Shown here: positions 24,186-37,264 of the stretch, in pieces | Position numbering within the stretch: the first letter of the stretch is position 1 | Layout of the letters: every line of letters starts with the position of its first letter | DNA from: Acidobacteriota bacterium | Lineage (GTDB): Bacteria; Acidobacteriota; Vicinamibacteria; Vicinamibacterales; UBA8438 | Reading direction: 5' to 3' | Length of the DNA stretch: 37,356 nucleotides | NCBI GenBank assembly: GCA_002712885.1 | Contig: PAUN01000056.1 | Coordinates: 33,135 to 70,490 of the forward strand | Notes under the pieces: generated by a model | Seen by the model: the letters and a program-made list of their open reading frames with translations, nothing else | Database searches by the model: none | What the model was told of the DNA's origin: nothing | Made by a program: the position numbers and the translations under genes

Positions 24186-24800
24186 ATGGCGGAAGAAGAC
24201 GTCCAGGCAGCCACGCCGGAACCGGAGCTCGCGCCGTACCTGCTCGAATCCGCTCGTTCGAGCCGTTCGAAGTGCCGTACCTGCAGACGAAAAATCGACA
24301 AGGATACGCTACGGCTCGGGATTCTCCTCGAAGGCCCATTTGGCACGGGCTACCTGTGGCATCACCTCACCTGCGCCGCGCGGCGTCGACTCGAGGACGT
24401 CGAAGCCGCGTACGAGCAACAGGCGTTCGCCGATGGACTGCAGGTGCCCCCACTGGCCGAACTCCAGGCGCTCAAGGAGAAGGCGGAGCAAGCACGGGCG
24501 GAGCGTAAGGAGCTGCCATACATGGAACGCGCCCCGAGCGGGCGGTCGAAGTGCAAGAACTGCGGCAAGGCCATCGACCAGGACGCGCTGCGCGTGGTGC
24601 TGGCGCGGGAGGTCTCCTTCGGCAACCAGGTCCGAGCGACCCCAATCAACGTCCACCCCGAATGTGTCCACGCGGAACTCGAATCGGAGGACTGCATGAC
24701 CGAGGTCGAAGGCTTCGAGGCCCAGCTGCGCCAGAACAGCACGCTCGAATCGTCGGTCGTTGACGAAGCCGTGGCGGCCATTGGCGTGCTCGAAGGCTAG
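24186..24800 (+). CDS. Protein with two PARP-type zinc fingers
   Basis: E.ARSSRSKCRTC-x26-HLTC and ERAPSGRSKCKNC-x30-HPEC both match the zf-PARP pattern A.S.R..C-x2-C...I....LR...H-x2-C; GGAAGGA RBS before ATG 24186. Confidence 0.85.
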   Translation: MAEEDVQAATPEPELAPYLLESARSSRSKCRTCRRKIDKDTLRLGILLEGPFGTGYLWHHLTCAARRRLEDVEAAYEQQAFADGLQVPPLAELQALKEKAEQARAERKELPYMERAPSGRSKCKNCGKAIDQDALRVVLAREVSFGNQVRATPINVHPECVHAELESEDCMTEVEGFEAQLRQNSTLESSVVDEAVAAIGVLEG

Positions 24801-25044
24801 CCGTGTCTTCGCCTGGTTCGCGAGGCGCCCTGTGGACGGCGCTCACGGTCCTGCGGACCGGCATTGCGGCCCCTCTACGGGACGAGAGCGAGCCAACGGC
24901 GTATGTGCGTCTGGGGTTCCCCTTTTGAGCCCGAACCAACCTGGAGCTTGGTCCAGGACCTCACGCGGGCGCTGTGCGGGGTCCCCGCTGTACCCCACTC
25001 CGCGCCCGGCCGTCCGGGCTCGCCATCTCCTACTGTTCGCGCTC

Positions 25045-27435
25045 ATGGCCGCGCCAGCGGCAGCCATCGCGCAGCCCCCAGTGACGGTAACCGGGCACGT
25101 CATCGACGGTGTCACCCAGGAGCCGCTGGCCGGGGTGCGGGTCGAAAGCGGCCACGACGTGGTGACCACCGAGCTGGGTGGCCGTTTCTCTATCGATGTC
25201 GGCGTGGCCGACACCACACTGCGATTTCAAGCCGACGGATACCTGGACACGGTCGCTCCCATCGACGGGCCGGAGCTGGAGGTTCGACTCTTCCCGAACG
25301 CGTTCGCCGAAACCGTGGAGGTGCTCTCGGGAACCGACCCGCAGGAGCGACCCTCATCGACCCCGGTCACCCCGGCCGACGTCTTTCAAGCGCCCGGCAG
25401 CATCGACAACGTCTTCCGGACACTCGACACCCTGCCTGGGATTGCATCCACCGACGACTTCGGCAGCCGGCTCGCGGTGCGCGGCGGCACCCCTGACCAG
25501 AACCTGACGGTGATGGACGGCGTCGAGGTGCACAACCCGTATCGTCTCTTTGGCATAGCCAGCGCGTTCAACCCCGAAACGGTCGAAAATTTCCAACTGA
25601 GCGCCGGCGGATTCGGCGCGGCGTATGGCGATCGATTGTCGTCCCTGCTGATCGTCGAGAACCGCCCTGGCGACGACGAGTTCGGGGGGGCTGGCGCGTT
25701 GAGCGTGACGGATGCCAACGTCGTGCTGGAAGGGGCGACGCCCGTTGGAGACAACGGCACCTGGCTCTTCAGCGCCCGGCGCACGTACTACGACCTGGTC
25801 GTGGGGCGTCTGCAAGATCAGACGTTCCCGTCGTTCGCGGACCTCCAGCTGCAAGCGGGATGGGAGTTCGGCGCGGGACATCGGCTGACACTCACGGGAC
25901 TGCGCAGTATCGAAGACGCCGACTTGAACTTCGACGTCAACCGGGAGGGCGAGCGGGCCGCGCTGGGGTCGGACGTGACCAATGGACTGGCGTCGGCCCG
26001 TCTCGATGCCATCCTCGGCGAGCGGGCCACGTCGACGACCATCGTGTCGTGGTATCGCAACCGGGAGCAGTTCAACTTCGACGGTCAGGTGCGCGCCGAC
26101 GCGAGGCGCTCGAACACCCCGGACAACGACCTCGCATTCGGACTCAACACCATCCTCTTCGACCGGTCGTTCGACGTTCGTGACGTCTCGATGCGACAGG
26201 AACTCGGGATTCAGGTATCACCCCGACACCTCCTCGGCGCCGGCATCGAGCTGCATTACCTCGAAACGGGTGTCGGCTTCACCATCGTGGGGGACCGGAA
26301 CCAGACCCAGGCGAACGGCTCGAGCATTCGGGGAGGCGCGGGCCTGCCCGACAACCTGCAGTCCGCGCTGCGCGGCACGCGGGGCGGACTCTGGCTACAG
26401 GACACCTACACCCCGTCCCCCCGCGTATCGTTCGAACCAGGTCTGCGGGTGGACTGGAGCACCATCAACGGCGGCACCACACTGTCACCCCGCATCGCGG
26501 CGAGCTACGCGGTGGGCCGTGGCGCGCGCGTGCGCGTGGCCGGCGGGTTGTACACACAGAGCCCCGGCTACGAAAAACTCACCCAGTCGGACTACTTCCT
26601 CGATCTGTCGAGTCCGCGTGAGCAAGGTCTGCGGCACGAGCGGGCGACACACGTCGTAATCGGCCTCGAGCAGGCATTGGCTAGCGCGTTGACGGCGCGG
26701 GTCGAGGGCTACTACAAGCGCTTCGACGATCTGCTCCTGGGCCGCCTCGAGAACGAGCCTGAGCGACTCGAGCGGGTGGCGCAGTACGACTTTCCAGAGC
26801 CCCTGAGCGCGAGTGTACCCACCGCACCGCTGATTCTGAGCGCCCCCTCGAATGACGCCGGGGGCACAGCCTACGGACTCGACGTGTTCCTTAGTCACAC
26901 CGACGCGGCGGCGCGGCTCACAGGGTGGCTCTCCTACGCGTGGGGTCGGGCGAATCGCGAGAGCTACGGCCGGCGGTACGCGTTCGAATACGACCGACGC
27001 CACGCGTTCAACGCGGTGGGTCGCTATCGGCTCACCCGGCGGTGGGACGTGGCAGCGACGGCCCGACTCGCCAGCGGTTTCCCGCACACGGCCCCGGTCG
27101 GGGTGCGAATCTCGGCCATCGAGGATGATCGGGGCCGACTGGTGCCGGAGACGGACTCAACCGGCGCCTTCATCTACACGGTCGACTACGGCAGCGTGGA
27201 CAACCTCAACGAAGCCAGGCTGCCCTACTATGCCCGTCTCGATGTCAGAGCGACGTATCGGCGAGCCCGGTGGTCGCTCTACGTCGAGGTGCTCAACCTG
27301 CTCGGTCGGGACAACGCGATCAGCCTGGACCCGCGGCTTAGGCACGACCCTGACTCGACAATGCCCCGAGTCTCGGAAGTGCCGTCTGAAGGTTTCCCGC
27401 GTATTCCAACGTTTGGTCTGCGCGTGCGGTTTTAG
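25045..27435 (+). CDS. TonB-dependent receptor with N-terminal carboxypeptidase-regulatory-like domain (start uncertain, 24925-25045)
   Basis: VTGHVID..TQEPLAGVRV, plug motifs LPGI..VRGG.PDQN..MDG and GGFGAAYGDRLSS, barrel strands SPRIAASY, GWLSY, RLDVR, EVLNLLGRDN, and C-terminal FGLRVRF ending in Phe. Confidence 0.88.
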   Translation: MAAPAAAIAQPPVTVTGHVIDGVTQEPLAGVRVESGHDVVTTELGGRFSIDVGVADTTLRFQADGYLDTVAPIDGPELEVRLFPNAFAETVEVLSGTDPQERPSSTPVTPADVFQAPGSIDNVFRTLDTLPGIASTDDFGSRLAVRGGTPDQNLTVMDGVEVHNPYRLFGIASAFNPETVENFQLSAGGFGAAYGDRLSSLLIVENRPGDDEFGGAGALSVTDANVVLEGATPVGDNGTWLFSARRTYYDLVVGRLQDQTFPSFADLQLQAGWEFGAGHRLTLTGLRSIEDADLNFDVNREGERAALGSDVTNGLASARLDAILGERATSTTIVSWYRNREQFNFDGQVRADARRSNTPDNDLAFGLNTILFDRSFDVRDVSMRQELGIQVSPRHLLGAGIELHYLETGVGFTIVGDRNQTQANGSSIRGGAGLPDNLQSALRGTRGGLWLQDTYTPSPRVSFEPGLRVDWSTINGGTTLSPRIAASYAVGRGARVRVAGGLYTQSPGYEKLTQSDYFLDLSSPREQGLRHERATHVVIGLEQALASALTARVEGYYKRFDDLLLGRLENEPERLERVAQYDFPEPLSASVPTAPLILSAPSNDAGGTAYGLDVFLSHTDAAARLTGWLSYAWGRANRESYGRRYAFEYDRRHAFNAVGRYRLTRRWDVAATARLASGFPHTAPVGVRISAIEDDRGRLVPETDSTGAFIYTVDYGSVDNLNEARLPYYARLDVRATYRRARWSLYVEVLNLLGRDNAISLDPRLRHDPDSTMPRVSEVPSEGFPRIPTFGLRVRF

Positions 27436-27509: not shown

Positions 27510-27838
27510 CTATCCGTCGCGCAACGCCTCGGTCGGGTCGACCCGCAGGCCGCGACGGGCCGGTCCGGCCGCCGCCAGCAACCCGACGACGATCATGAAG
27601 ACGGCGGTCATCGAAACGATCCCGTGGATACTCCCGTGACGCATGTCCTCGATCCCCGTCGACAGGAAGCGGTTGAGCGGAACCCCCAAGAGGATGCCGA
27701 CCGCTGCGCCGGCCCCGACCTGGCGCAACGCCCCCCGGAAGATACCGGCCAGCAAGCGTCTGGGTTGTGCGCCCAAGGCCGACCGAATGCCGATCTCACG
27801 TGTACGGCGGTTGACGCTGAACGACATCAACGCGTGAG
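27510..27838 (-). pseudogene. C-terminal remnant of a MacB/FtsX-type (ADOP-like) ABC permease
   Basis: [22 protein letters not shown]...PARRGLRVDPTEALR is the typical C-terminus of these long permeases. Only about 107 aa remain, and they overlap the 3' end of the upstream gene. Confidence 0.8.
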
Positions 27839-28638
27839 GCCAACTGATACACGCCACGCGCCGGTGTGATCGCGTATCCGTCCGCTACCAGTGCCCGATT
27901 GCCTAGACCGGCCTCGGGGCGAGACAGGCCGGTCACGCGCGCCAGTTCGCCAGGAATCGTCAGACCGGCTCCAGCCAGAAAGCATCGAGCGATTTCCCGG
28001 ACCGCGTTGTCTCGGCGGACTCGCCGAGTGAGCGATGCAGGAAACCGCCCGATGCCCAGCGTCCAGATGTAGGTGAACCTCGGTTGGTAGACGACCTCGC
28101 TGGGGACGACGAGCATCACCGCCTGGAGCTCATCGATGGCTCGGGTAAACGCCCGTCGCTCGGTCACCCCCGATTCGCTCCGCAGATCGGCGGTGGCGAG
28201 CTCCCACTCGTGGCGCAAGACGCGCAGGACCCGACTGGCGTCCTGGCTCAGGCGCCGCGTCTCTTCGGACTTGCGGATACCCCACACCGCATGAAAGTAG
28301 GGGATCATGCGCGGCGCGAGGAACATCGCCTTGCCGCGCGACAGCTTGGCGTAATACGTCTTACCGCGCCGCACGAGCTGGTCCTTCAACTGCCAGGTGA
28401 GCGACGCCTCGGGGTCTTTCTGAACGTTGCGCGGCATGACGGCGTCGCGGCGTCCACACACCGCAACATAGAGCGATGCACCGGGACGGCGTGCGTCAGT
28501 GAGGCAGGCGGCGAACCCGTTGCGCTCAACGAACTGTTCCGCGTCGAGGGGGGTCTCGACCTGGAGGCTCCCTTCCCGCTGCCAATGTTCGTCGCGGTAA
28601 TCTTCGACGTCCGGTGGAATGTGCGGACGAGGTCTCAT
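27796..28638 (-). CDS. Winged-helix protein, AlkZ/YcaQ (HTH_42)-related, function uncertain
   Basis: [23 protein letters not shown]...[21 protein letters not shown] and [12 protein letters not shown] helix-turn-helix-like segments. The ORF is solid; the family call is from recall. Confidence 0.55.
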
Positions 28639-28821: not shown

Positions 28822-30753
28822 ATGAACAGATTCGCGCCAATTCTCGTCGCCGCCACCACCCTCGCACTGTTGCTGCCTGGAAACGCGGTCGCGCAGATCG
28901 CAGAGTTCGATCTGGAGGTTATCGAATCGCCCGCGCTCGAGGGACGGCATTTCGGCGCGGCCGGTCAATATGAGCTGTTGCGGGGCATCGTCACCGGGGC
29001 GATCGACCCGGACGACCCGCGCCACCGAAACATCGTGAATCTCGACCGAGCGGCTCGGAACGACACCGGGCACGTCGAGTACCGCGCCACCGTCGAAATC
29101 TACCGACCGGTCGATATGACCCGGTGGAACCGCGGGATTTACCACACCGTGTCGAACCGGGGCCGATCCGGCGCGGCCGAGGTCGCGCTCCTCGAACGGG
29201 GCTTCGCATTCGTGCAGGTGGGCTGGCAGGGTGACCTCACCTCCAGCGAATCGAACATCGTCGCCTATCTCCCTACCGCCACGCAGGCGGACGGATCGCC
29301 GATCGTCGGCCCGACGCTCGAGGAATTCATCTTTGATGACACCGAGCGTGTGTCCCGTCGGCGCTTGACCTATCCCGTCGCGTCACTCGGATCGCGCGGC
29401 GGGATGATCTCGATTAGGACGAGTCAGAACGCGCGGCGCCAGACACCGGAGGATTTGGATTGGGTTTTTGTCAGCCCTACCGAAGTCGAGATTACGCGAC
29501 CGGCCGGGTTCGATGGCGGCGCGATCTACGAGTTCATCTACGAAGCCAAGGACCCGATCGTGATGGGTCTGGGATTCGCCGCGATGCGCGACGCCATCTC
29601 GTTCCTGCGCTACGAAGACACGGATACCGCCGGGCACGCGAATCCACTCGCCACCCCAGGCCTGCCCCGCACGGCGATCTCCCTCGGCGTGTCGCAGAGC
29701 GGTCGAATGTTGCGGGACTTTCTGTATCAGGGCTTCAACGAAGACGTGGCTGCCCGGATTGTCTTCGATGGCATGCACCCGAACATCGCGGGGTCACGCA
29801 AGAGCTTCACGAACTATCAGTTCTCTCAGCCGGGTCGCTGGCAGAAGCAACATGAGGACCACAACTACCCCGGCGACCAGTTCCCCTTTACCTATGCCAC
29901 GTTGACGGATCCGATCAGCGGCCGCACGGATGGGCTGCTCGAGCGATGCCGCGTGTCGGACACCTGTCCGAAGATCATCCACAGCGACGGCGAGGCGGAA
30001 CTCTGGCAGGCGCGCGCGTCCCTGGTCGTGACCGACTCGCGTGGCCAGCACATCGAACAGCCGGACAACGTGCGGGTGTATCTGATTGCGGGTGTCCGAC
30101 ACGGTGGTGGTCCCGGCGTGCACGCGGCGACGCCGACGCAGGGCATCTGTCAAAACCTGAACAATCCGCTGGCGCTGAGTCAGACCCGCGCGGCGCTGAG
30201 TATCGCGCTGCAGGAGTGGGTGGCGCAGGATATCGAGCCGCCGGCGAGTCGGTTCCCCACCGTTGCGAACGGCGGACTTGTCACCGCCACCCGCGTCGGC
30301 TTTCCGGACATTCCGGGGGTGACATACTCGGGATCGTACAACCCGCTGTCGCTGGCGGACCATCGCTCGATGCCGCCGATGCAGGGCGCCCCCTACACCG
30401 TGCTCGTGGCACAAACCGATACCGACGGCAACATGACCGGCGGCGTGCGGCATCCCAATCTCGCCGCGCCAATCGGCACGCATACGGGGTGGAACCTGCG
30501 GCGTCAGGGCTTCGCCGCGGGCCAGCAGTGTGGAGGCGCAGGGTCGTACATTCCGTTCGCCGCCACGCGCAGCGCGCGCGAGTCGGCTGGCGACCCGCGG
30601 GCGTCGATCGAGGAACGGTATCCGAATCACGCCGCCTATGTGCGCGCGATCTCTGACGCGGCTGACGCATTGGTACGCGACCGGCTGCTGCTCCAGAGCG
30701 ACGCGGACGAGATCGTCGCGCTGGCGCGAGGCAGCCGAGGCAAGACGAACTAG
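28822..30753 (+). CDS. Secreted alpha/beta-hydrolase-domain protein
   Basis: Signal peptide; nucleophile elbow GVSQSG; GWQGD, GLGFAAMRD, FPFTY, DTDGN..GGVR.P and DPRASIEERY; GGAGG RBS. Confidence 0.85.
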   Translation: MNRFAPILVAATTLALLLPGNAVAQIAEFDLEVIESPALEGRHFGAAGQYELLRGIVTGAIDPDDPRHRNIVNLDRAARNDTGHVEYRATVEIYRPVDMTRWNRGIYHTVSNRGRSGAAEVALLERGFAFVQVGWQGDLTSSESNIVAYLPTATQADGSPIVGPTLEEFIFDDTERVSRRRLTYPVASLGSRGGMISIRTSQNARRQTPEDLDWVFVSPTEVEITRPAGFDGGAIYEFIYEAKDPIVMGLGFAAMRDAISFLRYEDTDTAGHANPLATPGLPRTAISLGVSQSGRMLRDFLYQGFNEDVAARIVFDGMHPNIAGSRKSFTNYQFSQPGRWQKQHEDHNYPGDQFPFTYATLTDPISGRTDGLLERCRVSDTCPKIIHSDGEAELWQARASLVVTDSRGQHIEQPDNVRVYLIAGVRHGGGPGVHAATPTQGICQNLNNPLALSQTRAALSIALQEWVAQDIEPPASRFPTVANGGLVTATRVGFPDIPGVTYSGSYNPLSLADHRSMPPMQGAPYTVLVAQTDTDGNMTGGVRHPNLAAPIGTHTGWNLRRQGFAAGQQCGGAGSYIPFAATRSARESAGDPRASIEERYPNHAAYVRAISDAADALVRDRLLLQSDADEIVALARGSRGKTN

Positions 30754-31640
30754 TGCCCGTGGCCGACGCCGCCTCTGTTTCGAATCGCGGGCCTCAGCAG
30801 TACGACCATTTCGCCGACATCTACGGCGTTTGGACCGAGACCGCCTCATCGACGCGTGCCAATCTGCCGTTCTACGTCGATGCCTACTTGGCCGCCCAGG
30901 GACCAGTCGTGGAATTGGGCGTGGGTGACGGGCGTATCGCGGTTCGGGCGGCGACACGTGGCTGCCGGGTGATCGGCGTAGACACATCCACCGCCATGCT
31001 GGATCTGTGCCGGGCGCGCGCGACACGCGCCCGTGTCACGGACTGCGTCGACCTGCGGCAGGCCGATTTCCGCGACTTCACGCTGACGGAACCGGCCGAT
31101 CTCATTGCGCTCCCGTACCACAGCATCGGGCACCTGACCACACTCGACGACAAACGCCGCGCACTCCACCAGGTGTTCGCACAACTTCGACCGGGCGGAC
31201 GGTTCATCTTCGATGATTTCCTCATGACCCCCGCGCTCATCACGCACATGCGGCAGGTGCAACTTCGAGCCATGTATCCGTCGTCATCATCATCCCCTAC
31301 CCCGTCGCCGGGCGCATCCACCTCGCGCTCACCGGAACAGGACACCCTGCTGTGGGTCACCTCTCTGGTGAACGAATCGTCCCAAACGCTCACCGTCGTC
31401 ACTTGGGAGGATCTCCTGCACCCCGACGGGCGTCTCGACACGCGGCGCTATCGCCGCCTGAGTCTGAGCTGGCTGCTCCCGACCCAGGCGCGACAATTGC
31501 TCGACGACGCCGGATTCGAGGTTGAAGCCTGTTTCGGCGACTTTCAGCGCACGCCCTTCGCTGAAACCACCGCGGTGGAGCAGGTCTGGATCGCCCGCAA
31601 GCCCTCAACACACAGCGCAAACGTGAGGACCGCGACGTGA
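30753..31640 (+). CDS. Class I SAM-dependent methyltransferase
   Basis: YD.FADIY, VVELGVGDGR (motif I), GVDTS.AML, ADFRDF, LRPGGRFIFD, LL.DAGFEV...FGDF. Start is GTG 30753 or 30759. Confidence 0.88.
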   Translation: MPVADAASVSNRGPQQYDHFADIYGVWTETASSTRANLPFYVDAYLAAQGPVVELGVGDGRIAVRAATRGCRVIGVDTSTAMLDLCRARATRARVTDCVDLRQADFRDFTLTEPADLIALPYHSIGHLTTLDDKRRALHQVFAQLRPGGRFIFDDFLMTPALITHMRQVQLRAMYPSSSSSPTPSPGASTSRSPEQDTLLWVTSLVNESSQTLTVVTWEDLLHPDGRLDTRRYRRLSLSWLLPTQARQLLDDAGFEVEACFGDFQRTPFAETTAVEQVWIARKPSTHSANVRTAT

Positions 31641-31999
31641 CGATCGGGACGACGGGGCTCAAGAATCTGCGGGTCGACTGCGTGGTCGGCGTCTACGACT
31701 ACGAGCGCGCGGCAGCCCAGCCGGTGCTGTTCGACATCGAGTTGGACTACGATTTCGCAGCCGCGGCCGGCTCCGACGCCATCGGCGACGCCATCGACTA
31801 CGACCGCGCCGCCACCGCCGTCACCGCGCTGGTCCAGGAGCGCCAGTTCGCGCTGCTGGAGAGCATGGCGGAAGCGGTCGCGGCGCGCTTGCTGGACGAG
31901 ATGCCACCGGTACAGATCGTGCGTCTGGAGATCAGAAAGCCGCAGGCGGTGCCGGCCGCCGCTGGTGCGTTCGTACGGGTGGAGCGCACACGCGTATGA
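31637..31999 (+). CDS. folB: Dihydroneopterin aldolase
   Basis: 120 aa; GVYDYER...QPVLFDIEL, DAIDY, FALLESMAE and LEIRKP carry the conserved Glu, Tyr and catalytic Lys. GTGA overlap with the methyltransferase. Confidence 0.92.
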   Translation: MTIGTTGLKNLRVDCVVGVYDYERAAAQPVLFDIELDYDFAAAAGSDAIGDAIDYDRAATAVTALVQERQFALLESMAEAVAARLLDEMPPVQIVRLEIRKPQAVPAAAGAFVRVERTRV

Positions 32000-32727
32000 G
32001 TGTGTCCGGCGACGGACCGGTGGCGGTGGTGACCGGCGGAGCCCGGCGACTCGGTCGCCATCTGTGCTCGACGCTGGCCGCACGCGGCTTCGACCTCGTC
32101 GTGCTCTATCGCACGGCGGAGGCGGACGCCCAGTCACTGACGGCAGCGATCGAAGCACGCGGTCGCCACGCCCGAGCCCTACCGGTGGATGTTGCCCTCG
32201 AGGCGGACGTGGCGTCGGTGTTTCGCGACATCCGAGCCACCGAGGGCCGCCTCGATCTCCTGGTCAACAACGTCGGCAACTACAACCCGCAGCATGTGAC
32301 CAAGCTCGACCCGACCGCGTGGGATGCGACCCTCGCCGCCAATCTATCGGGTGCCTTCTACTGCTGCTATCACGCGCTTCCGTTCATGTCTGACAATGGG
32401 AACATCATCAATGTCGGCATGGCCGGCTTGGAGGGGATCCGCGCCAATGTCCACGGCACCGACTACTACGTCAGCAAGACCGGTCTGCTCGTGCTGACGC
32501 GCGCGCTGGCGGCGGCGCACGCCGACCGTCGGATCCGCGTGAACATGGTGTCGCCGGGACAACTCGACAACTCCATCGATCTCCCGCCACCGGACAAGAT
32601 CGGCCGGACCGTGCCGCTGGGCCGGGCCGGGCATCTCGACGACGTCACCCAGGCCGTCGAATATCTGCTCGACGCCAGTTACGTCACCGGCGTCAACATC
32701 GACATCTCAGGCGGCTACCGGCTCTAG
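31996..32727 (+). CDS. SDR oxidoreductase, pteridine/dihydrofolate reductase-like (FolM/PTR1/Thermus TmpR-like)
   Basis: VTGGARRLG, LVNNVGNY, NVGMAG, YYVSK (YxxxK), NMVSPG..DNS, PLGR and YVTG..I.ISGG. ATGA overlap with folB supports a pterin substrate. Confidence 0.78.
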   Translation: MSVSGDGPVAVVTGGARRLGRHLCSTLAARGFDLVVLYRTAEADAQSLTAAIEARGRHARALPVDVALEADVASVFRDIRATEGRLDLLVNNVGNYNPQHVTKLDPTAWDATLAANLSGAFYCCYHALPFMSDNGNIINVGMAGLEGIRANVHGTDYYVSKTGLLVLTRALAAAHADRRIRVNMVSPGQLDNSIDLPPPDKIGRTVPLGRAGHLDDVTQAVEYLLDASYVTGVNIDISGGYRL

Positions 32728-32739
32728 TGGCGTCGAACC

Positions 32740-33927
32740 GTGCGTCTCAGCGGACAGTCCCTGGCCACCTCCGCGACATCCCTGCGCCCACTCTGGGATC
32801 GGGCGGCCGAGTGGGAGTGCCGTCTCCGCATGGTGGCCGGAGCTCGGCAGTTCCTGTATCTATCGACCTACTACCTGGAGTACGACGCGTACGGCGCCGA
32901 ACTGGTCACAGCCCTGGTCGAGGCGCAGCGACGCGGGGTGGCGGTGCACCTGCTGGTCGATCGCTTTGGTCAGACACTTGGCGGCGTGCTGATGAGAGAG
33001 GACGTCAAGGCGACGCTTGCCGCCCGACTCGACGACCTGCTCGCGGCTGGAGCGACGGTCGAGTTCTACGCGCCGAGACACTACCTGCAGCGGCAACTGG
33101 GCGGCGGCCAGCATGTCAAGATTCAGGTCTCCGAGGCGGGTGAGGCCCTGTTCGGGAGCAGCAACATCACCGCCTCGAGTTTCGAGCGCTGGCACGAATA
33201 CTCCGTCGCGGTGCGCGGACCAATCGTGTCCACGCTGTTGGCCAGTTACGACGAAATTGGCGGCACGGTGGACGACGCCCACCTGCGGCACCTGGAGGAG
33301 AACCCAGCCGTTCAGCCGGCGGACATCGCGCGCGACGTCGACCTCGAATACTGGTTCTGCAACCCCAACCTGCACCAGGGCCGGCGAGGGCCACTGTGGT
33401 GGCGCGGACGGAATGTGGTGACCGACCGCTTGGTGGACTTGGTGGACAGCGCCCGCGAGCGACTCCAGATCACCGCGTTCTACTTCAAGCCGATTCCGGT
33501 GCTCATGGACGCGGTGCTCCGAGCCGCCCGCCGAGGGGTGCGGGTGGAGGTGTACCATTCGCATCGGGAGGCGCTCGACGCCACCGATCTGGCGTGGATC
33601 GCGGCGGCGGCGAGCTACGACCGGCTGCTGGCCTCGGGCGTGCGCATCTATGAGCATCGGTGCGGCGAGCACTCGAAAATCGTGCTCGTGGACGCTGGCC
33701 CGGTTGCCTTCGGCAGCTACAACTTCGAGGACGCTGCGCACGACCGGTTGGCGGAGGCGATGCTGGCCACACCCGACCCGGGTGTCGTGGCCCACGCGTC
33801 ATCGATTTTCGACGAGCTGCGTCAGGACCCGAACAACATTCCGGTCACGCACGAGTTTCGAGGCCGACTCTCCCGATCGCTGCGGTGGCAACTGGCGCTG
33901 ATGGGCCGTTTCAAGCGATGGATGTAG
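32740..33927 (+). CDS. Phospholipase D superfamily protein with two HKD-type motifs and no membrane anchor
   Basis: HVKIQVSE-x6-GSSN and HSKIVLVD-x6-GSYN; AQRRGVAVHLLVD and AARRGVRVEV; cardiolipin-synthase-like layout. Confidence 0.85.
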   Translation: MRLSGQSLATSATSLRPLWDRAAEWECRLRMVAGARQFLYLSTYYLEYDAYGAELVTALVEAQRRGVAVHLLVDRFGQTLGGVLMREDVKATLAARLDDLLAAGATVEFYAPRHYLQRQLGGGQHVKIQVSEAGEALFGSSNITASSFERWHEYSVAVRGPIVSTLLASYDEIGGTVDDAHLRHLEENPAVQPADIARDVDLEYWFCNPNLHQGRRGPLWWRGRNVVTDRLVDLVDSARERLQITAFYFKPIPVLMDAVLRAARRGVRVEVYHSHREALDATDLAWIAAAASYDRLLASGVRIYEHRCGEHSKIVLVDAGPVAFGSYNFEDAAHDRLAEAMLATPDPGVVAHASSIFDELRQDPNNIPVTHEFRGRLSRSLRWQLALMGRFKRWM

Positions 33928-33943
33928 TCGAGAGGACACCGGC

Positions 33944-34531
33944 GTGACGCCCGAGGATCTGCGGTTCACGGAAATCGAGCACAAGTTCCTAGTCGACGAC
34001 CAGTTCGACCTGGCCGTCTTCGACACGACCTTGCGCGACCTGGGCCCTGAGAAGACCACATCAATACAGGTTCGCGACCGCTACTACCTGACCGCGGGCG
34101 GGCAAGCCGGAGGATTTCTCATCCGGCATCGTTTCGACCCCGAGTTGCACCACCTGACGCTGAAGGCCGTGGGACCGGACACCGAGGCGCGCTCAGAGAT
34201 CAACCTCGACCTCGGCCACCATGCCGGCGACCAGCAGGCCGCGGTCGACGCGTTTCTCGACCGGCTTGGGGTTGAGTGGCGCGGCACGCTCCAGAAGGAC
34301 CTGCGTGTGTGGCAATTCGCGGATATCGAAGTCGTCCACTACTGCGCCACGACCGAGACCCGGGCCGTCCGATGTGTGGAGTTCGAAGCGACCCACAAAC
34401 CCTCGCTTACCGACGCGCTCGACGTCGTGCACCGGTATGAGCGTGCGACCGGGTTTGACGAGCGGGATCGGTCACGCCTGTCACTTCCGCAAATGCTCTT
34501 TCCGGAAATCGCGGTGGCGTTCGGGGACTAA
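33944..34531 (+). CDS. CYTH / triphosphate tunnel metalloenzyme-like protein
   Basis: N-terminal EIEHKF (ExExK), DRYY, IRHR, LTLK, RSEIN, K..RVW and VEFE; GAGAGGA RBS before GTG 33944. Confidence 0.72.
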   Translation: MTPEDLRFTEIEHKFLVDDQFDLAVFDTTLRDLGPEKTTSIQVRDRYYLTAGGQAGGFLIRHRFDPELHHLTLKAVGPDTEARSEINLDLGHHAGDQQAAVDAFLDRLGVEWRGTLQKDLRVWQFADIEVVHYCATTETRAVRCVEFEATHKPSLTDALDVVHRYERATGFDERDRSRLSLPQMLFPEIAVAFGD

Positions 34532-34557
34532 CGCGAGCGACCGGCAACCGGGTCGCG

Positions 34558-36300
34558 TCAGGGCAGCTTGAAGACGAACAGCGTGTTGCCGCGACCTGGC
34601 TGCTGGATCTCCGGCGTAAGTCCGCGGAAATTGATACCGCCACCGGCCGCAATGGCGAGGTATTGCACGCCGTCGTGCATGTAGGAGACCGGAAACCCGC
34701 CCGCGCTCGAGTTGAGAATCTGCTCCCACAGGATGTCGCCACTGCGGGCGTCGAAGGCGCGAAACCGCCGGGCGTCATCGGTCACGAACACCAGACCGCC
34801 ACCGGTGGTCAGCACCGAACCACCCATGCCGGCCCGCTGCCGATACACCCAGAGCGGCTGGCCGGTGGTCAGGTCCATGGCCGTGAACTGACCGATTTCG
34901 CCGTCGATGTCCGGGGCCGGTGCCTGCGCGATCCGGGCCGACCCGTGGTGGGCGCCAGGCCGGTCACGGAACTGATTGAGCGTCAGGTCCATGCAGACGT
35001 TGTTGGTCGGCGCGTACAGCGCGTTCGTTCCAGGGTGGTAGGCGGTCGCCTGCCAGTTGATACCACCCAAGGCGCTCGGGCAGACGAACACGGGCTTCCC
35101 CACCTCCGGGAACTTCAACGCTGAATTGAGAATGACCCGGCGGCTCTCGGCGTCGATATCCACCACGACGTTCTGATAGTTGGTGGGCTCGGCCCACAGG
35201 AACGCACCGGTCGCGGCGTCTAGGGCCCAGACGATGCCGGTCTTGCCCGGGATGCCGGTCACGATCTTGCGGCGCCCGCCCGGCGTGATCGAGCTGTTCT
35301 TCCACCGAACCGCGGCGTCCGGCGAGACCTCTGTCTCGACCACTAACCGGGCGTAGGGATGGTCGAGATCCCACTCGTCATTGGGAATGTGTTGAAAATA
35401 CCAGACGATGTCTCCCGTGTCGGCATTCAACGCCAGCGTGGAATTCGTATAGAGGACGTCGCCGTCTCCGGTTCCGCGCTGGACGGAGCCCCATGGAATC
35501 GGCACCCCCACTCCGGTATAGATCAGGTTCAACTCCGGGTCGTAGCTCGGTGAGTTCCACGCGGAGCCGCCGCGACGGTCCTCGTCCGGCACGTCACCCC
35601 AGCTGTCGTAACCAAACTCGCCCCGGCCAGGGATGGTGTAGGTGCGCCACGCCTCCTCACCCGTGTCGACGTCGTGGGCCGACACCCAGCAGCGGGTGTT
35701 GAGGTGATAGCAGCCCGACATGCCAGCGACGACGCGCCCTTTGATCACCATCGGGCCGCCGGAGTAGTGCTGGCCGATGGTCCAGTCGCCGACCTCCACG
35801 TCCCACGCGACGTCGCCCGTACGCGCATCCAGGGCGACCAGATGGGCGTCGTGAGTCGCGATAAACAACTTGTCTTGATAGAGGGCACCGTTGCGGTTCG
35901 CACACGACAACCTCGCCGCGTGGTCGACGCGCTCGCGGCGATACTGCCAAATGCGGGACCCGTCACGCACGTCGAGCGCCTCGACGAAGTCGCATGCCTG
36001 CACCAGGAACATCATCCCGTCGTGCACCAGCGGGGTCGTTTCCTGAAGACCTTCGCCCATTGTCCAGGCCCAGGCGAGACGGAGGGTGCCGACATTGGAT
36101 GTGTTGATCTGGTCGAGTGGACTGTGGCCCCAGTGGCCGTAGGTCCGCCGCCACATGGGCCAATCGCCGGGCGCCGGGTCCACCAGCATTTCGTCGGTCA
36201 CCGGCGTGTAGCTGTCGGCGACCGACTGCGCCGACACGACAGACCCGGCGACCACGACGAGGCACAAGACACCAATCACCCACCGGCACGCTATTCGCAT
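34558..36300 (-). CDS. PQQ-dependent dehydrogenase, alcohol-dehydrogenase-like, secreted
   Basis: PVTDEML..P.PGDW..WRR.Y...GHSPLDQI..LRLAW, ETTPLV, YDPELNLIY.G, NDEWDLD, CPSALGG.NW, GGLVF, RFRAFD..SG..LW and QYLAI. Start at ATG 36300 (GGGAGAG upstream, signal peptide follows). Confidence 0.87.
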   Translation of the reverse strand: MRIACRWVIGVLCLVVVAGSVVSAQSVADSYTPVTDEMLVDPAPGDWPMWRRTYGHWGHSPLDQINTSNVGTLRLAWAWTMGEGLQETTPLVHDGMMFLVQACDFVEALDVRDGSRIWQYRRERVDHAARLSCANRNGALYQDKLFIATHDAHLVALDARTGDVAWDVEVGDWTIGQHYSGGPMVIKGRVVAGMSGCYHLNTRCWVSAHDVDTGEEAWRTYTIPGRGEFGYDSWGDVPDEDRRGGSAWNSPSYDPELNLIYTGVGVPIPWGSVQRGTGDGDVLYTNSTLALNADTGDIVWYFQHIPNDEWDLDHPYARLVVETEVSPDAAVRWKNSSITPGGRRKIVTGIPGKTGIVWALDAATGAFLWAEPTNYQNVVVDIDAESRRVILNSALKFPEVGKPVFVCPSALGGINWQATAYHPGTNALYAPTNNVCMDLTLNQFRDRPGAHHGSARIAQAPAPDIDGEIGQFTAMDLTTGQPLWVYRQRAGMGGSVLTTGGGLVFVTDDARRFRAFDARSGDILWEQILNSSAGGFPVSYMHDGVQYLAIAAGGGINFRGLTPEIQQPGRGNTLFVFKLP

Positions 36301-36390
36301 TGCTCTCTCCCTGGACCAGCGCCCACCCGAAGACCGTATCCGCCCCACCTGGACGGGAAACAAGAACGGTTAACTTTTGCCGCAAGCAAG

Positions 36391-36571: not shown

Positions 36572-37264
36572 ATGAACGTCAAGGCTACGATCGCAGAACT
36601 TATAGGCACCTTCATCCTTGTTTTCATTGGAACAGCCACGGCCGTTCTGGCTGGCTCAACACTACTCGGCGAGAGTGGCATGCCCATTCTAGCGATTGCC
36701 TTCGCATTCGGCTTTACCCTGATGGTGCTGGTTTACACGATCGGACCAATTTCGGGCTGTCACATCAATCCGGCCGTGACGATTGCGATGCTCATCGCCA
36801 AGAAGATTTCAGTTAAAGATGCTGTCCCCTACATGGTTGCACAAGTCATTGGCGGCATTTTGGCCAGCGTGGTTCTGCGGGCGCTGTTAACAGGCATCCA
36901 GACCTACAGCGTCGGACAACATGGGCTCGGCGCCAACGGCATCGCGCTCGGCGACCTCATGACACCTGGATCGATGCTCGGTTTCGAAATCGTGCTGACA
37001 GCCCTCTTCCTTTACGTCATCTTCAACGCCACATCGTCCAAGGCAACCCCCGGCGCAGCCGGCCTGGCCATCGGCGGATTTCTGTTTGTGGCCCATTTGA
37101 TCGGCGTACCGCTGGGCGACTCGTCATTGAACCCAGCCCGTAGCATTGGCCCAGCTCTACTGCAGGGCGGTGCAGCCGTCAGCGAGCTTTGGATCTTCGT
37201 CGTTGGCCCAATCGTTGGCGCCGTGATTGGCGCCTTGCTCTACAAGCTGACCGCTGACGAATAG
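36572..37264 (+). CDS. aqpZ: MIP family channel, aquaporin Z-like
   Basis: AELIGTF, ISGCHINPAVT and SLNPARS (two NPA boxes), six hydrophobic helices, His and Arg at the expected ar/R positions; 230 aa. Confidence 0.85.
   Translation: MNVKATIAELIGTFILVFIGTATAVLAGSTLLGESGMPILAIAFAFGFTLMVLVYTIGPISGCHINPAVTIAMLIAKKISVKDAVPYMVAQVIGGILASVVLRALLTGIQTYSVGQHGLGANGIALGDLMTPGSMLGFEIVLTALFLYVIFNATSSKATPGAAGLAIGGFLFVAHLIGVPLGDSSLNPARSIGPALLQGGAAVSELWIFVVGPIVGAVIGALLYKLTADE

Follow-up and report, generated by a model that had tools for sequence, protein, structure and literature searches.

A 37,356-nucleotide stretch of DNA from a member of the Acidobacteriota (order Vicinamibacterales), hereafter the window, carries five genes encoding, in this order, a methyltransferase (MT), FolB, a short-chain dehydrogenase/reductase (SDR), a two-HKD enzyme of the phospholipase D (PLD) superfamily and a CYTH protein. 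These five genes form one real, conserved operon, which travels as a set in about a hundred species (~108 species-level loci among GTDB representatives). The cassette is best read as a self-contained, portable pterin front end, in which FolB and a PTR1/FolM-type SDR form the core, the CYTH and PLD proteins stand where phosphatases would be expected, and the MT is optional. Its composition hints at a so far undescribed handling of the GTP-derived pterin precursor.

The first-pass annotation of this DNA had described six co-oriented genes, the sixth being a hydrolase (here an alpha/beta hydrolase, ABH) upstream of the MT, and the open reading frame (ORF) positions, all on the plus strand, and the junction letters, read directly, are as claimed (Table 1). 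ABH and MT overlap by 1 nt (TAGTG, comprising the ABH stop and the GTG start of MT), MT and FolB by 4 nt (GTGA), and FolB and SDR by 4 nt (ATGA), while gaps of 12 nt and 16 nt separate SDR from PLD and PLD from CYTH, respectively. The window belongs to contig C63 of an assembly of 3.83 Mb (94% complete), and 11 studies have marine and seawater metagenome runs that contain its DNA.

Table 1. Genes of the operon, followed by the genes that flank it in the window
Gene product	Position	Strand	Supporting match
Abhydrolase_10 alpha/beta hydrolase (ABH), secreted-looking	28822..30753	+	PF20091 2e-46
Class I S-adenosylmethionine-dependent methyltransferase (MT)	30753..31640	+	Methyltransf_25 2.8e-17
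FolB-type dihydroneopterin aldolase/epimerase	31637..31999	+	PF02152 2.1e-29; TIGR00525
FolM/PTR1-type SDR	31996..32727	+	adh_short_C2 6e-43; best NCBIfam match TmpR
Two-HKD PLD-superfamily enzyme, predicted soluble	32740..33927	+	PLDc_2 4.1e-33, two stretches
Divergent CYTH / triphosphate tunnel metalloenzyme (TTM)	33944..34531	+	PF01928 28.6 bits vs cut-off 23.2
TonB-dependent receptor with CarboxypepD_reg domain	24760-27435	+	
AlkZ-related gene	27796-28638	-	
Pyrroloquinoline quinone (PQQ)-dependent alcohol-dehydrogenase-type gene, converging on the operon end	34558-36363	-	TIGR03075 397.7 bits, below cut-off 480
Aquaporin Z	36572-37264	+	

The CYTH family has 680 matches at E<=0.001, the best 120 listed showing 62-99% identity. 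A family-alignment scan of one genome per GTDB species confirmed 108 CYTH places, of which 80 were kept, and neighbours were counted on these 80 loci by local tblastn with the window proteins, a locus being testable for a given gene where it has enough flank (in 8 loci the flank is too short for the FolB test). In 77/77 testable loci the PLD gene sits immediately upstream of CYTH, SDR and FolB are each present in 72/72 (the loci having been found via CYTH), and MT is present in 60/70. Gene order and strand are identical in all testable loci of the 80, with zero order violations, which places the arrangement far beyond chance. A synteny search had been set beforehand as the test of the proposed linkage, and with FolB-SDR-PLD-CYTH kept together in 72/72 loci and MT in 60/70, the linkage holds. 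The overlaps recur as well: FolB and SDR share 4 nt (ATGA) in 19 of the 24 inspected loci and a single nucleotide in another two, an overlap of 4-13 nt between PLD and CYTH occurs in 11 of these 24, and the 4-nt overlap of MT and FolB is found in 10 of the 19 inspected loci having MT. The four core enzymes (FolB, SDR, PLD and CYTH) have all kept their catalytic signatures across 73 cassettes.

A further conserved neighbour of the cassette was considered and rejected, with no other gene family occurring in more than 15/80 loci (the higher-ranking extra clusters are antisense ORFs over core genes). The annotated flanking genes are mutually unrelated across loci, and vary in small subsets that include FMN reductase, aminotransferase, DAO oxidoreductase, branching enzyme, prolyl oligopeptidase and PQQ dehydrogenases.

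FolB scores 102.8 bits against PF02152 (cut-off 31.8) and 86.4 against TIGR00525 (cut-off 72.15), and its best solved relatives are the FolB chains 3o1k (1e-17), 3r2e and 2o90. Residues E23, Y55, E75 and K101, which we take to be the catalytic and pterin-binding Glu, Tyr, Glu and Lys, align with those of the solved FolBs and are kept in at least 97% of the 73 cassette FolBs. Assignment as FolX (the 2'-epimerase of 7,8-dihydroneopterin triphosphate, DHNTP) was rejected, as the protein reaches 53.6 bits against the FolX model PRK11245, below the cut-off of 152, and the FolX structures match weakly (chains at 1.9e-8 and 3.7e-5).

The SDR had been proposed to be of the FolM/PTR1 type, and it does carry the expected motif: TGGARRLG fits TGX3RXG, and this is the sole such SDR found in the genome. 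TGX3RXG and YxxxK are each present in 72/73 cassette SDRs. The occurrence of TGX3RXG in place of TGX3GXG is described as the mark of PTR1 and FolM in PMC1971073. The protein matches the full length of TmpR, which acts as a reductase on both dihydropteridine and dihydrofolate (193.8 bits vs a cut-off of 325), and also matches the pteridine reductase model PRK09135 (134 bits, below the cut-off of 288). Judged by these scores it is a relative, and no equivalog, of TmpR and pteridine reductase, and a putative dihydropterin, possibly dihydrofolate, reductase.

The CYTH protein has no NCBIfam match and no sequence match in the PDB, even in a profile search at E<=1. Its AlphaFold2 (AF2) model (pLDDT 88.7) matches TTMs, which share an eight-stranded tunnel fold, with a Foldseek probability of 1.00. 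The best matches are the archaeal TTMs 2dc4, 1yem and 7ns9/7nsa (query TM-score, TMq, 0.67-0.73), thiamine triphosphatase and class IV adenylate cyclase, and identity to solved TTM members is 15-22%. The ExExK motif is present in 73/73 cassette CYTHs, and R61, R63, K74, R83, E85, E146 and E148 are conserved. The ESM Atlas returns only unnamed CYTH-like clusters, some of them phage-derived, and some sources label CYTH relatives 'adenylate cyclase class IV'. The protein is a candidate DHNTP phosphohydrolase, and at most a functional analogue of NudB/FolQ.

Both HxK(x4)D/E motifs of the PLD protein are present in 73/73 cassettes. Its AF2 model (pLDDT 93.2) gives the highest query TM-scores with the phosphatidylserine synthases 8yr5 (0.74) and 3hsi (0.72), and TM ~0.62 with PLD 7e0m, vaccinia F13 and PLD3. 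The sequence falls under every NCBIfam cut-off (DrmC, 80 bits vs 133; ClsB, 76.9 vs 281; bac_cardiolipin, 65.3 vs 290; PssA PRK09428, 28.7 vs 314) and, judged by eye, lacks a membrane segment at its N-terminus. The bond usually cleaved by TTMs is a phosphoanhydride. HKD enzymes act on phosphodiesters or, in the case of PssA, on a phosphoanhydride (CDP-diacylglycerol). By analogy, a PssA-like attack of the PLD protein on a pterin di- or triphosphate is conceivable. A cyclic-phosphate or phosphodiester intermediate or product is also conceivable, if unsupported.

The best NCBIfam match of the MT is a methyltransferase for daptides, which are peptides made on the ribosome and modified after translation (81.5 bits, below the cut-off of 175), and its best solved relative is 9sot (8.5e-28, residues 13-282, nearly full length), followed in the PDB by CcbJ, YunM and the cypemycin N-terminal methyltransferase. 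A further PDB match is 8ys9, a phosphatidylethanolamine N-methyltransferase (5.3e-6). Structure 9sot is cited in a paper on myxarylin biosynthesis (PMC12951456). Similarity of this kind, to amine N-methyltransferases of the ribosomal-peptide and lincosamide type (CypM, daptide MT, CcbJ, 9sot), cannot separate N- from O-methylation or fix the substrate, and the MT is probably an optional tailoring gene of the cassette, the MT-less loci (10/70) lying at several separate places in the cassette tree. Since its relatives align from about residue 13, the true MT start may lie downstream of 30753. One low-depth metatranscriptome contig (run X17) lacks one base at 30756, at the ABH stop and MT start, which could be a strain variant or an error. 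A paralog of the MT (32% identity over 272 residues) is located at G000:C76:73393-74136, on the same contig as folP and ~9 kb from it.

The N-terminus of ABH (MNRFAPILVAATTLALLLPGNAVAQ) reads like a signal peptide when judged by eye. An ABH ortholog of at least 68% identity lies upstream in 22/80 loci, sometimes ~2 kb from MT, and also adjoins a reduced FolB-CYTH form of the cassette in genome G263. It is probably a lineage-restricted, variable upstream neighbour outside the core, which agrees with the earlier suspicion that the secreted hydrolase is a passenger.

As the first-pass annotation had noted, no folK, folP or folE lies alongside the operon, and these genes are located in the same genome on contigs C11, C76 and C36, respectively, with no pterin gene seen in their neighbourhoods. 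The genome encodes one 6-hydroxymethyl-7,8-dihydropterin pyrophosphokinase (HPPK), one FolE, one dihydropteroate synthase (DHPS) and ThyX, and a second pterin-binding match lies inside a 1266-aa open frame, by our guess MetH. A proposed check of the genome for nudB/folQ, folA and a second folB gave a single PF02152 match, which is the cassette FolB, and neither FolA (PF00186) nor ThyA was found in this 94% complete assembly. No NudB equivalog was found among 6 Nudix-box ORFs (best 22.7 bits vs cut-off 103), a set defined by an ORF pattern that may miss divergent Nudix genes, and no cassette protein matches a Nudix model.

In the same genome, at G000:C36:18143-20536 (locus L119 3231-5624), downstream of folE come an overlapping same-strand ORF of 219 aa, which matches neither Pfam nor NCBIfam, and a Pyr_redox_3 flavoprotein, both being candidates for the lineage's unassigned pterin steps. 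The two paralogs of 6-pyruvoyltetrahydropterin synthase (PTPS) have the motifs CKHLHGH (QueD type) and ..LHGA... The gene with the atypical motif (PF01242, 4.9e-22), at G000:C51:44791-47375 (locus L095 292-2876, which contains ambiguous bases), sits between a 360-aa ORF without a Pfam match and a GT4 glycosyltransferase, and this locus may represent a pterin-glycoside-like cluster of its own. Two PTPS genes are found in all family-level relatives, with or without the cassette.

CYTH is present in 4/301 genomes of a phylum sample and in 10/121 genomes of an order sample (Vicinamibacterales). Within the order sample, a PLD ortholog is found in 9/121 genomes and an SDR ortholog (at least 61% identity) in the same 9, the next best SDRs being at most 42% identical, and at the thresholds used PLD and CYTH orthologs occur nowhere else. 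FolB scores above its cut-off in 11/121, namely the ten CYTH genomes and the cassette-free G306, in which it lies beside folP. HPPK is found in 117/121, PTPS-family genes in 116/121, and a strong FolA match in 3/121. FolB and the cassette SDR are thus no housekeeping genes of the order, and arrive with the cassette.

Exactly one PF02152 match, the cassette's own, is present in each of the 15 distinct cassette genomes checked (the ten of the order sample, G001-G003, G005 and G425; G004 was taken to be G394 because of identical coordinates). PF00186 matches none of the 10 cassette genomes of the order and none of the 4 from a second phylum, although in the latter its absence is uninformative, since 5/6 of the cassette-free relatives checked also lack it. 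In the class of the Sericytochromatia-labelled hosts, a non-cassette FolB is present in 15/47 genomes, the cassette in 4/47 and both in 0/47. The metagenome-assembled genome records L080, L032, L045 and L081 that carry the cassette are labelled Acidimicrobiia, Gemmatimonadetes, Chloroflexi or Bifidobacteriaceae; the label of L080 looks wrong, because its contig coordinates equal those of G394, which is placed in Vicinamibacterales. Only the Sericytochromatia/Tanganyikabacteria are shown, among the oddly labelled hosts, to belong to another group.

Three explanations that would bear on this distribution were tried and not borne out. Phenylalanine hydroxylase (PF00351) is the classical tetrahydropterin consumer, and supplying it was rejected as the purpose of the cassette, as the gene is present in 21/121 order genomes and in 0/10 cassette genomes. 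A FolB substitute next to folK was sought in relatives, in which the gene upstream is dksA and nothing pterin-like was seen in 8 loci. The PTPS motif is CxxxHGH in QueD and ExxHGH in the type that bypasses FolB (PMC5041015). The motif was readable in 5 of 12 sampled cassette-free relatives and is C[RK]HPHGH in all of them, so that a PTPS-III bypass as the reason for the FolB-less order finds no support in the motifs that could be read.

The complete genome of G263, from the same family, contains a reduced form of the locus with only hydrolase, FolB and CYTH (G263:C1:1311671-1314714; locus L093 7675-10714). About 90 nt separate FolB and CYTH; MT, SDR and PLD are missing, and the rest of this genome yielded no ortholog of PLD or SDR at the thresholds used. 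Because FolB and CYTH are kept as a pair, CYTH plausibly works immediately with FolB, removing the triphosphate, which FolB does not tolerate, and this is the best single argument for such a partnership. Together with FolE, the pair would suffice to give FolB its substrate.

The observations to build on are the family-level identities of the genes, their conserved order, their co-distribution and the lack of any other FolB; from these, each substrate is inferred. The input of the proposed pathway would be DHNTP from the host FolE, with no other host pterin enzyme needed. In the first step, CYTH would strip or shorten the triphosphate, and the PLD protein would handle the remaining phosphoryl step. 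In the second step, FolB would cleave or epimerise the dephosphorylated dihydroneopterin, giving 6-hydroxymethyl-dihydropterin or dihydromonapterin. The SDR may then reduce the 7,8-dihydropterin, and possibly also dihydrofolate (no FolA having been found), to the tetrahydro form, and the MT, which is missing from some cassettes, would tailor the product. We lean towards supply of the FolB route to the host's separate HPPK and DHPS, for folate, as the main service, with a reduced pterin as a second output. Three observations draw us to a folate-related role: the single FolB in each of the 15 cassette genomes checked, the lack of any genome with both kinds of FolB in the class of the Sericytochromatia-labelled hosts, and the FolB-CYTH pair of G263. 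We put the odds slightly short of even that the main contribution of the cassette is the FolB route, along with a reductase for dihydropterin/dihydrofolate, in hosts that lack them, with CYTH acting on DHNTP. A bolder proposal, which we consider rather doubtful, is that CYTH and PLD together provide a new non-Nudix solution for the triphosphate of DHNTP, through hydrolysis or through adenylate-cyclase-like cyclisation to a 2',3'-cyclic phosphate followed by HKD-catalyzed opening or transfer, the product being free dihydroneopterin or a phosphodiester-linked methylated tetrahydropterin. The pterin-pathway interpretation in the first-pass annotation is supported in part: the linkage, the FolB and SDR types and the passenger status of the hydrolase stand, and for the dephosphorylation step the FolB-CYTH pair of G263 fits CYTH as the phosphatase of FolB.

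Several points weigh against a folate-supplying front end. As the titles of their structures indicate, the substrates of CYTH enzymes also include inorganic triphosphate, nucleotides and thiamine triphosphate, and we know of no TTM that acts on a pterin triphosphate. Canonical folate synthesis has no role for PLD or MT, and still every testable locus (77/77) retains PLD; overall, MT is kept in most copies and PLD in all but one. To our knowledge, neither the TTM nor the HKD superfamily removes a terminal phosphomonoester, and therefore CYTH and PLD would not obviously end at free dihydroneopterin. Within the order, 110/121 genomes lack FolB, 112/121 lack this SDR and only 3/121 have a strong FolA match, yet HPPK is present in 117/121; the lineage must therefore feed HPPK and reduce dihydrofolate by other means, which cassette hosts may keep, so that the cassette need not serve folate. 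The distribution of the cassette is patchy. The rule that two FolBs never coexist rests on few independent events, the four hosts from the other phylum being probably one clade, and in a midpoint-rooted tree of four concatenated core proteins, whose root is uncertain, the acidobacterial cassettes enclose those of the other phylum. The RNA data cut both ways. In favour of the operon, short contigs from rRNA-depleted metatranscriptomes (runs X17 and X18, from one study) cover parts of ABH, MT, FolB, PLD and CYTH, and the ABH/MT and MT/FolB junctions are spanned, which is a weak hint of RNA, as contigs cannot prove a transcript. From the oligo-dT 'RNA' runs X6 and X11 comes a flat contig of 5-8 kb that spans convergent genes, which indicates that DNA is present in these libraries.

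Several of these points suit a different account, in which the cassette is devoted to making a modified, reduced pterin as a cofactor or signal and has no folate role, an account that we judge possible though unlikely. The product could be a methylated tetrahydro-monapterin or -neopterin, or a phosphodiester pterin made by PLD after cyclisation or trimming by CYTH; FolB would be mainly an epimerase or side-chain cutter, and the SDR would make the active tetrahydro form. The patchy spread (10/121 of the order, 4/301 of the phylum sample) resembles that of an accessory trait, as does the nesting of the other-phylum cassettes in the midpoint-rooted core-protein tree, and since cassette-free relatives keep HPPK without FolB, folate needs no cassette in this lineage. 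The retention of MT (60/70) and of PLD (77/77), a phosphodiester-transfer enzyme without a folate role, would also be accounted for. There is a precedent in 2'-O-methyl-tetrahydromonapterin of A. tumefaciens, for which PMC4488946 describes the methyltransferase as still unknown in 2015. However, the distribution of PF00351 (21/121 order genomes, 0/10 cassette genomes) speaks against a tetrahydropterin consumer of the classical kind, and the loss of SDR, PLD and MT in G263, where FolB and CYTH are kept, is hard to explain if the sole product needs all steps. MT is moreover missing from 10/70 loci at several separate places in the tree, and zero cassette genomes have a second FolB, which would be expected sometimes for a purely accessory pathway.

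At the opposite extreme, the cassette might serve strict folate housekeeping, with CYTH and PLD as a non-orthologous phosphatase pair of the FolQ type, FolB, and the SDR as a FolA substitute. The cassette-free relatives would then be pterin auxotrophs that salvage hydroxymethylpterin, and the MT an unrelated passenger. We regard this as improbable, as auxotrophy of ~90% of a free-living soil and water order is a strong assumption and the PLD step is superfluous in the textbook pathway. In its favour, the functions that homology fails to reveal in the host are just those that the cassette holds (FolB, a reductase of the dihydrofolate-capable type and a DHNTP phosphatase), and the readable PTPS of cassette-free relatives has the QueD motif and no ExxHGH. 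The MT can be cited on both sides, being dispensable in 10/70 loci but kept in 60/70 and joined to FolB by the 4-nt overlap in 10/19 inspected MT loci.

Slightly less probable still is that only FolB and SDR are pterin enzymes and that PLD and CYTH are co-transferred neighbours with unrelated roles (phospholipid head-group exchange or cardiolipin synthesis for PLD; hydrolysis of inorganic triphosphate or polyphosphate, or cAMP synthesis, for CYTH), since the nearest named families of PLD (ClsB, cardiolipin synthase and DrmC), its top TM-scores with phosphatidylserine synthases, the MT match to the phosphatidylethanolamine N-methyltransferase 8ys9 (5.3e-6) and the 'adenylate cyclase class IV' naming of CYTH relatives by some sources are set against four genes that stay together, often overlapping, in 72/72 testable loci across two phyla, PLD and CYTH orthologs that occur nowhere else in the 121 order genomes at the thresholds used, a PLD protein that (by eye) lacks an N-terminal membrane segment and is under all lipid-synthase cut-offs, and a CYTH that stays with FolB when PLD is lost (G263).

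Beyond the operon (Table 1), an imperfect GC-rich inverted repeat, GCGACC ... GGTCGC, was read by eye at 34537-34556, between the convergent stops of CYTH and the PQQ gene, without a T-run. The second-best model for the PQQ gene is the 'acido-empty-quinoprotein group A'. PQQ-family genes are found within 8 kb of the cassette in 11/80 loci, at varying positions and with 24-100% identity, and their proximity is probably due to chance in genomes rich in such genes. In the last kilobase of the window the G+C content goes down to 57%.

Of all steps in folate and pterin synthesis, the conversion of DHNTP to dihydroneopterin has the poorest enzyme assignment. In PMC1971073, the gene for DHNTP pyrophosphatase is described as still missing in most genomes, and the candidates given are the Nudix protein FolQ and the HD-type FolQ2, not CYTH or PLD. 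No published account of the cassette, or of a CYTH/TTM protein linked to dihydroneopterin or its triphosphate, was found in the literature searched, which leaves most subscription journals outside. With CYTH and PLD, the cassette supplies two specific non-Nudix candidates that can readily be assayed, and their operon partners fix the class of substrate. If the two do act in this way, pterins would be added to the substrates of two large superfamilies (TTM and HKD). Being rare (~108 species-level loci among GTDB representatives), the cassette would not solve the missing-gene problem in general. The gap is wider than this step, as FolB and FolA were not found in most sampled Vicinamibacterales with HPPK, and the few PTPS genes inspected lack a PTPS-III-type motif; the dihydroneopterin-aldolase and dihydrofolate-reductase functions of the order appear unassigned.

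Compared with the canonical route (FolE, the Nudix pyrophosphatase NudB/FolQ, an unspecific phosphatase, FolB, FolK, FolP), the cassette has the FolE product as its proposed start and a FolB of ordinary type, and the host has single FolE, FolK and FolP genes outside the cassette. It differs in having no Nudix gene, in having CYTH and PLD in the place of the phosphatases, and in the SDR, which would replace FolA. In addition, the cassette FolB lies apart from folK and folP, whereas the FolB of the cassette-free G306 is beside folP.

The tetrahydromonapterin branch (FolE-FolX-phosphatase-FolM in E. coli and Pseudomonas; PruA in A. tumefaciens) likewise pairs a FolB-family protein with a TGX3RXG SDR. 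Its phosphatase step is likewise unassigned and its product is known as a methylated derivative in A. tumefaciens (PMC4488946 and PMC1971073). In contrast, the cassette protein scores as FolB and not as FolX, its SDR is under the cut-offs for pteridine reductase and TmpR, the cassette hosts have no detected phenylalanine hydroxylase, and PLD and CYTH are foreign to this branch.

In archaea, a route via dihydroneopterin 2',3'-cyclic phosphate involves MptA and then the cyclic phosphodiesterase MptB. This is a precedent for the handling of the side-chain phosphate by a cyclic-phosphate and phosphodiesterase pair rather than by a Nudix enzyme. The families are unrelated (MptA is an Fe-dependent cyclohydrolase and MptB an HD-type phosphodiesterase), and the cassette shows no sign of a cyclic intermediate.

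The cassette PLD resembles the two-HKD transferases PssA and ClsB in its two HKD motifs, in a fold closest to PssA (TMq 0.74 and 0.72) and in weak matches to the ClsB and PssA profiles, but it misses their cut-offs widely, lacks a membrane anchor and occurs in a pterin rather than a lipid context. The cassette CYTH resembles known TTMs (archaeal SaTTM, thiamine triphosphatase and CyaB) in fold (TMq up to 0.73), in its ExExK motif and in its basic and acidic tunnel residues, whereas it differs from them in forming a closed family of ~108 species-level loci that is always found in a pterin context.

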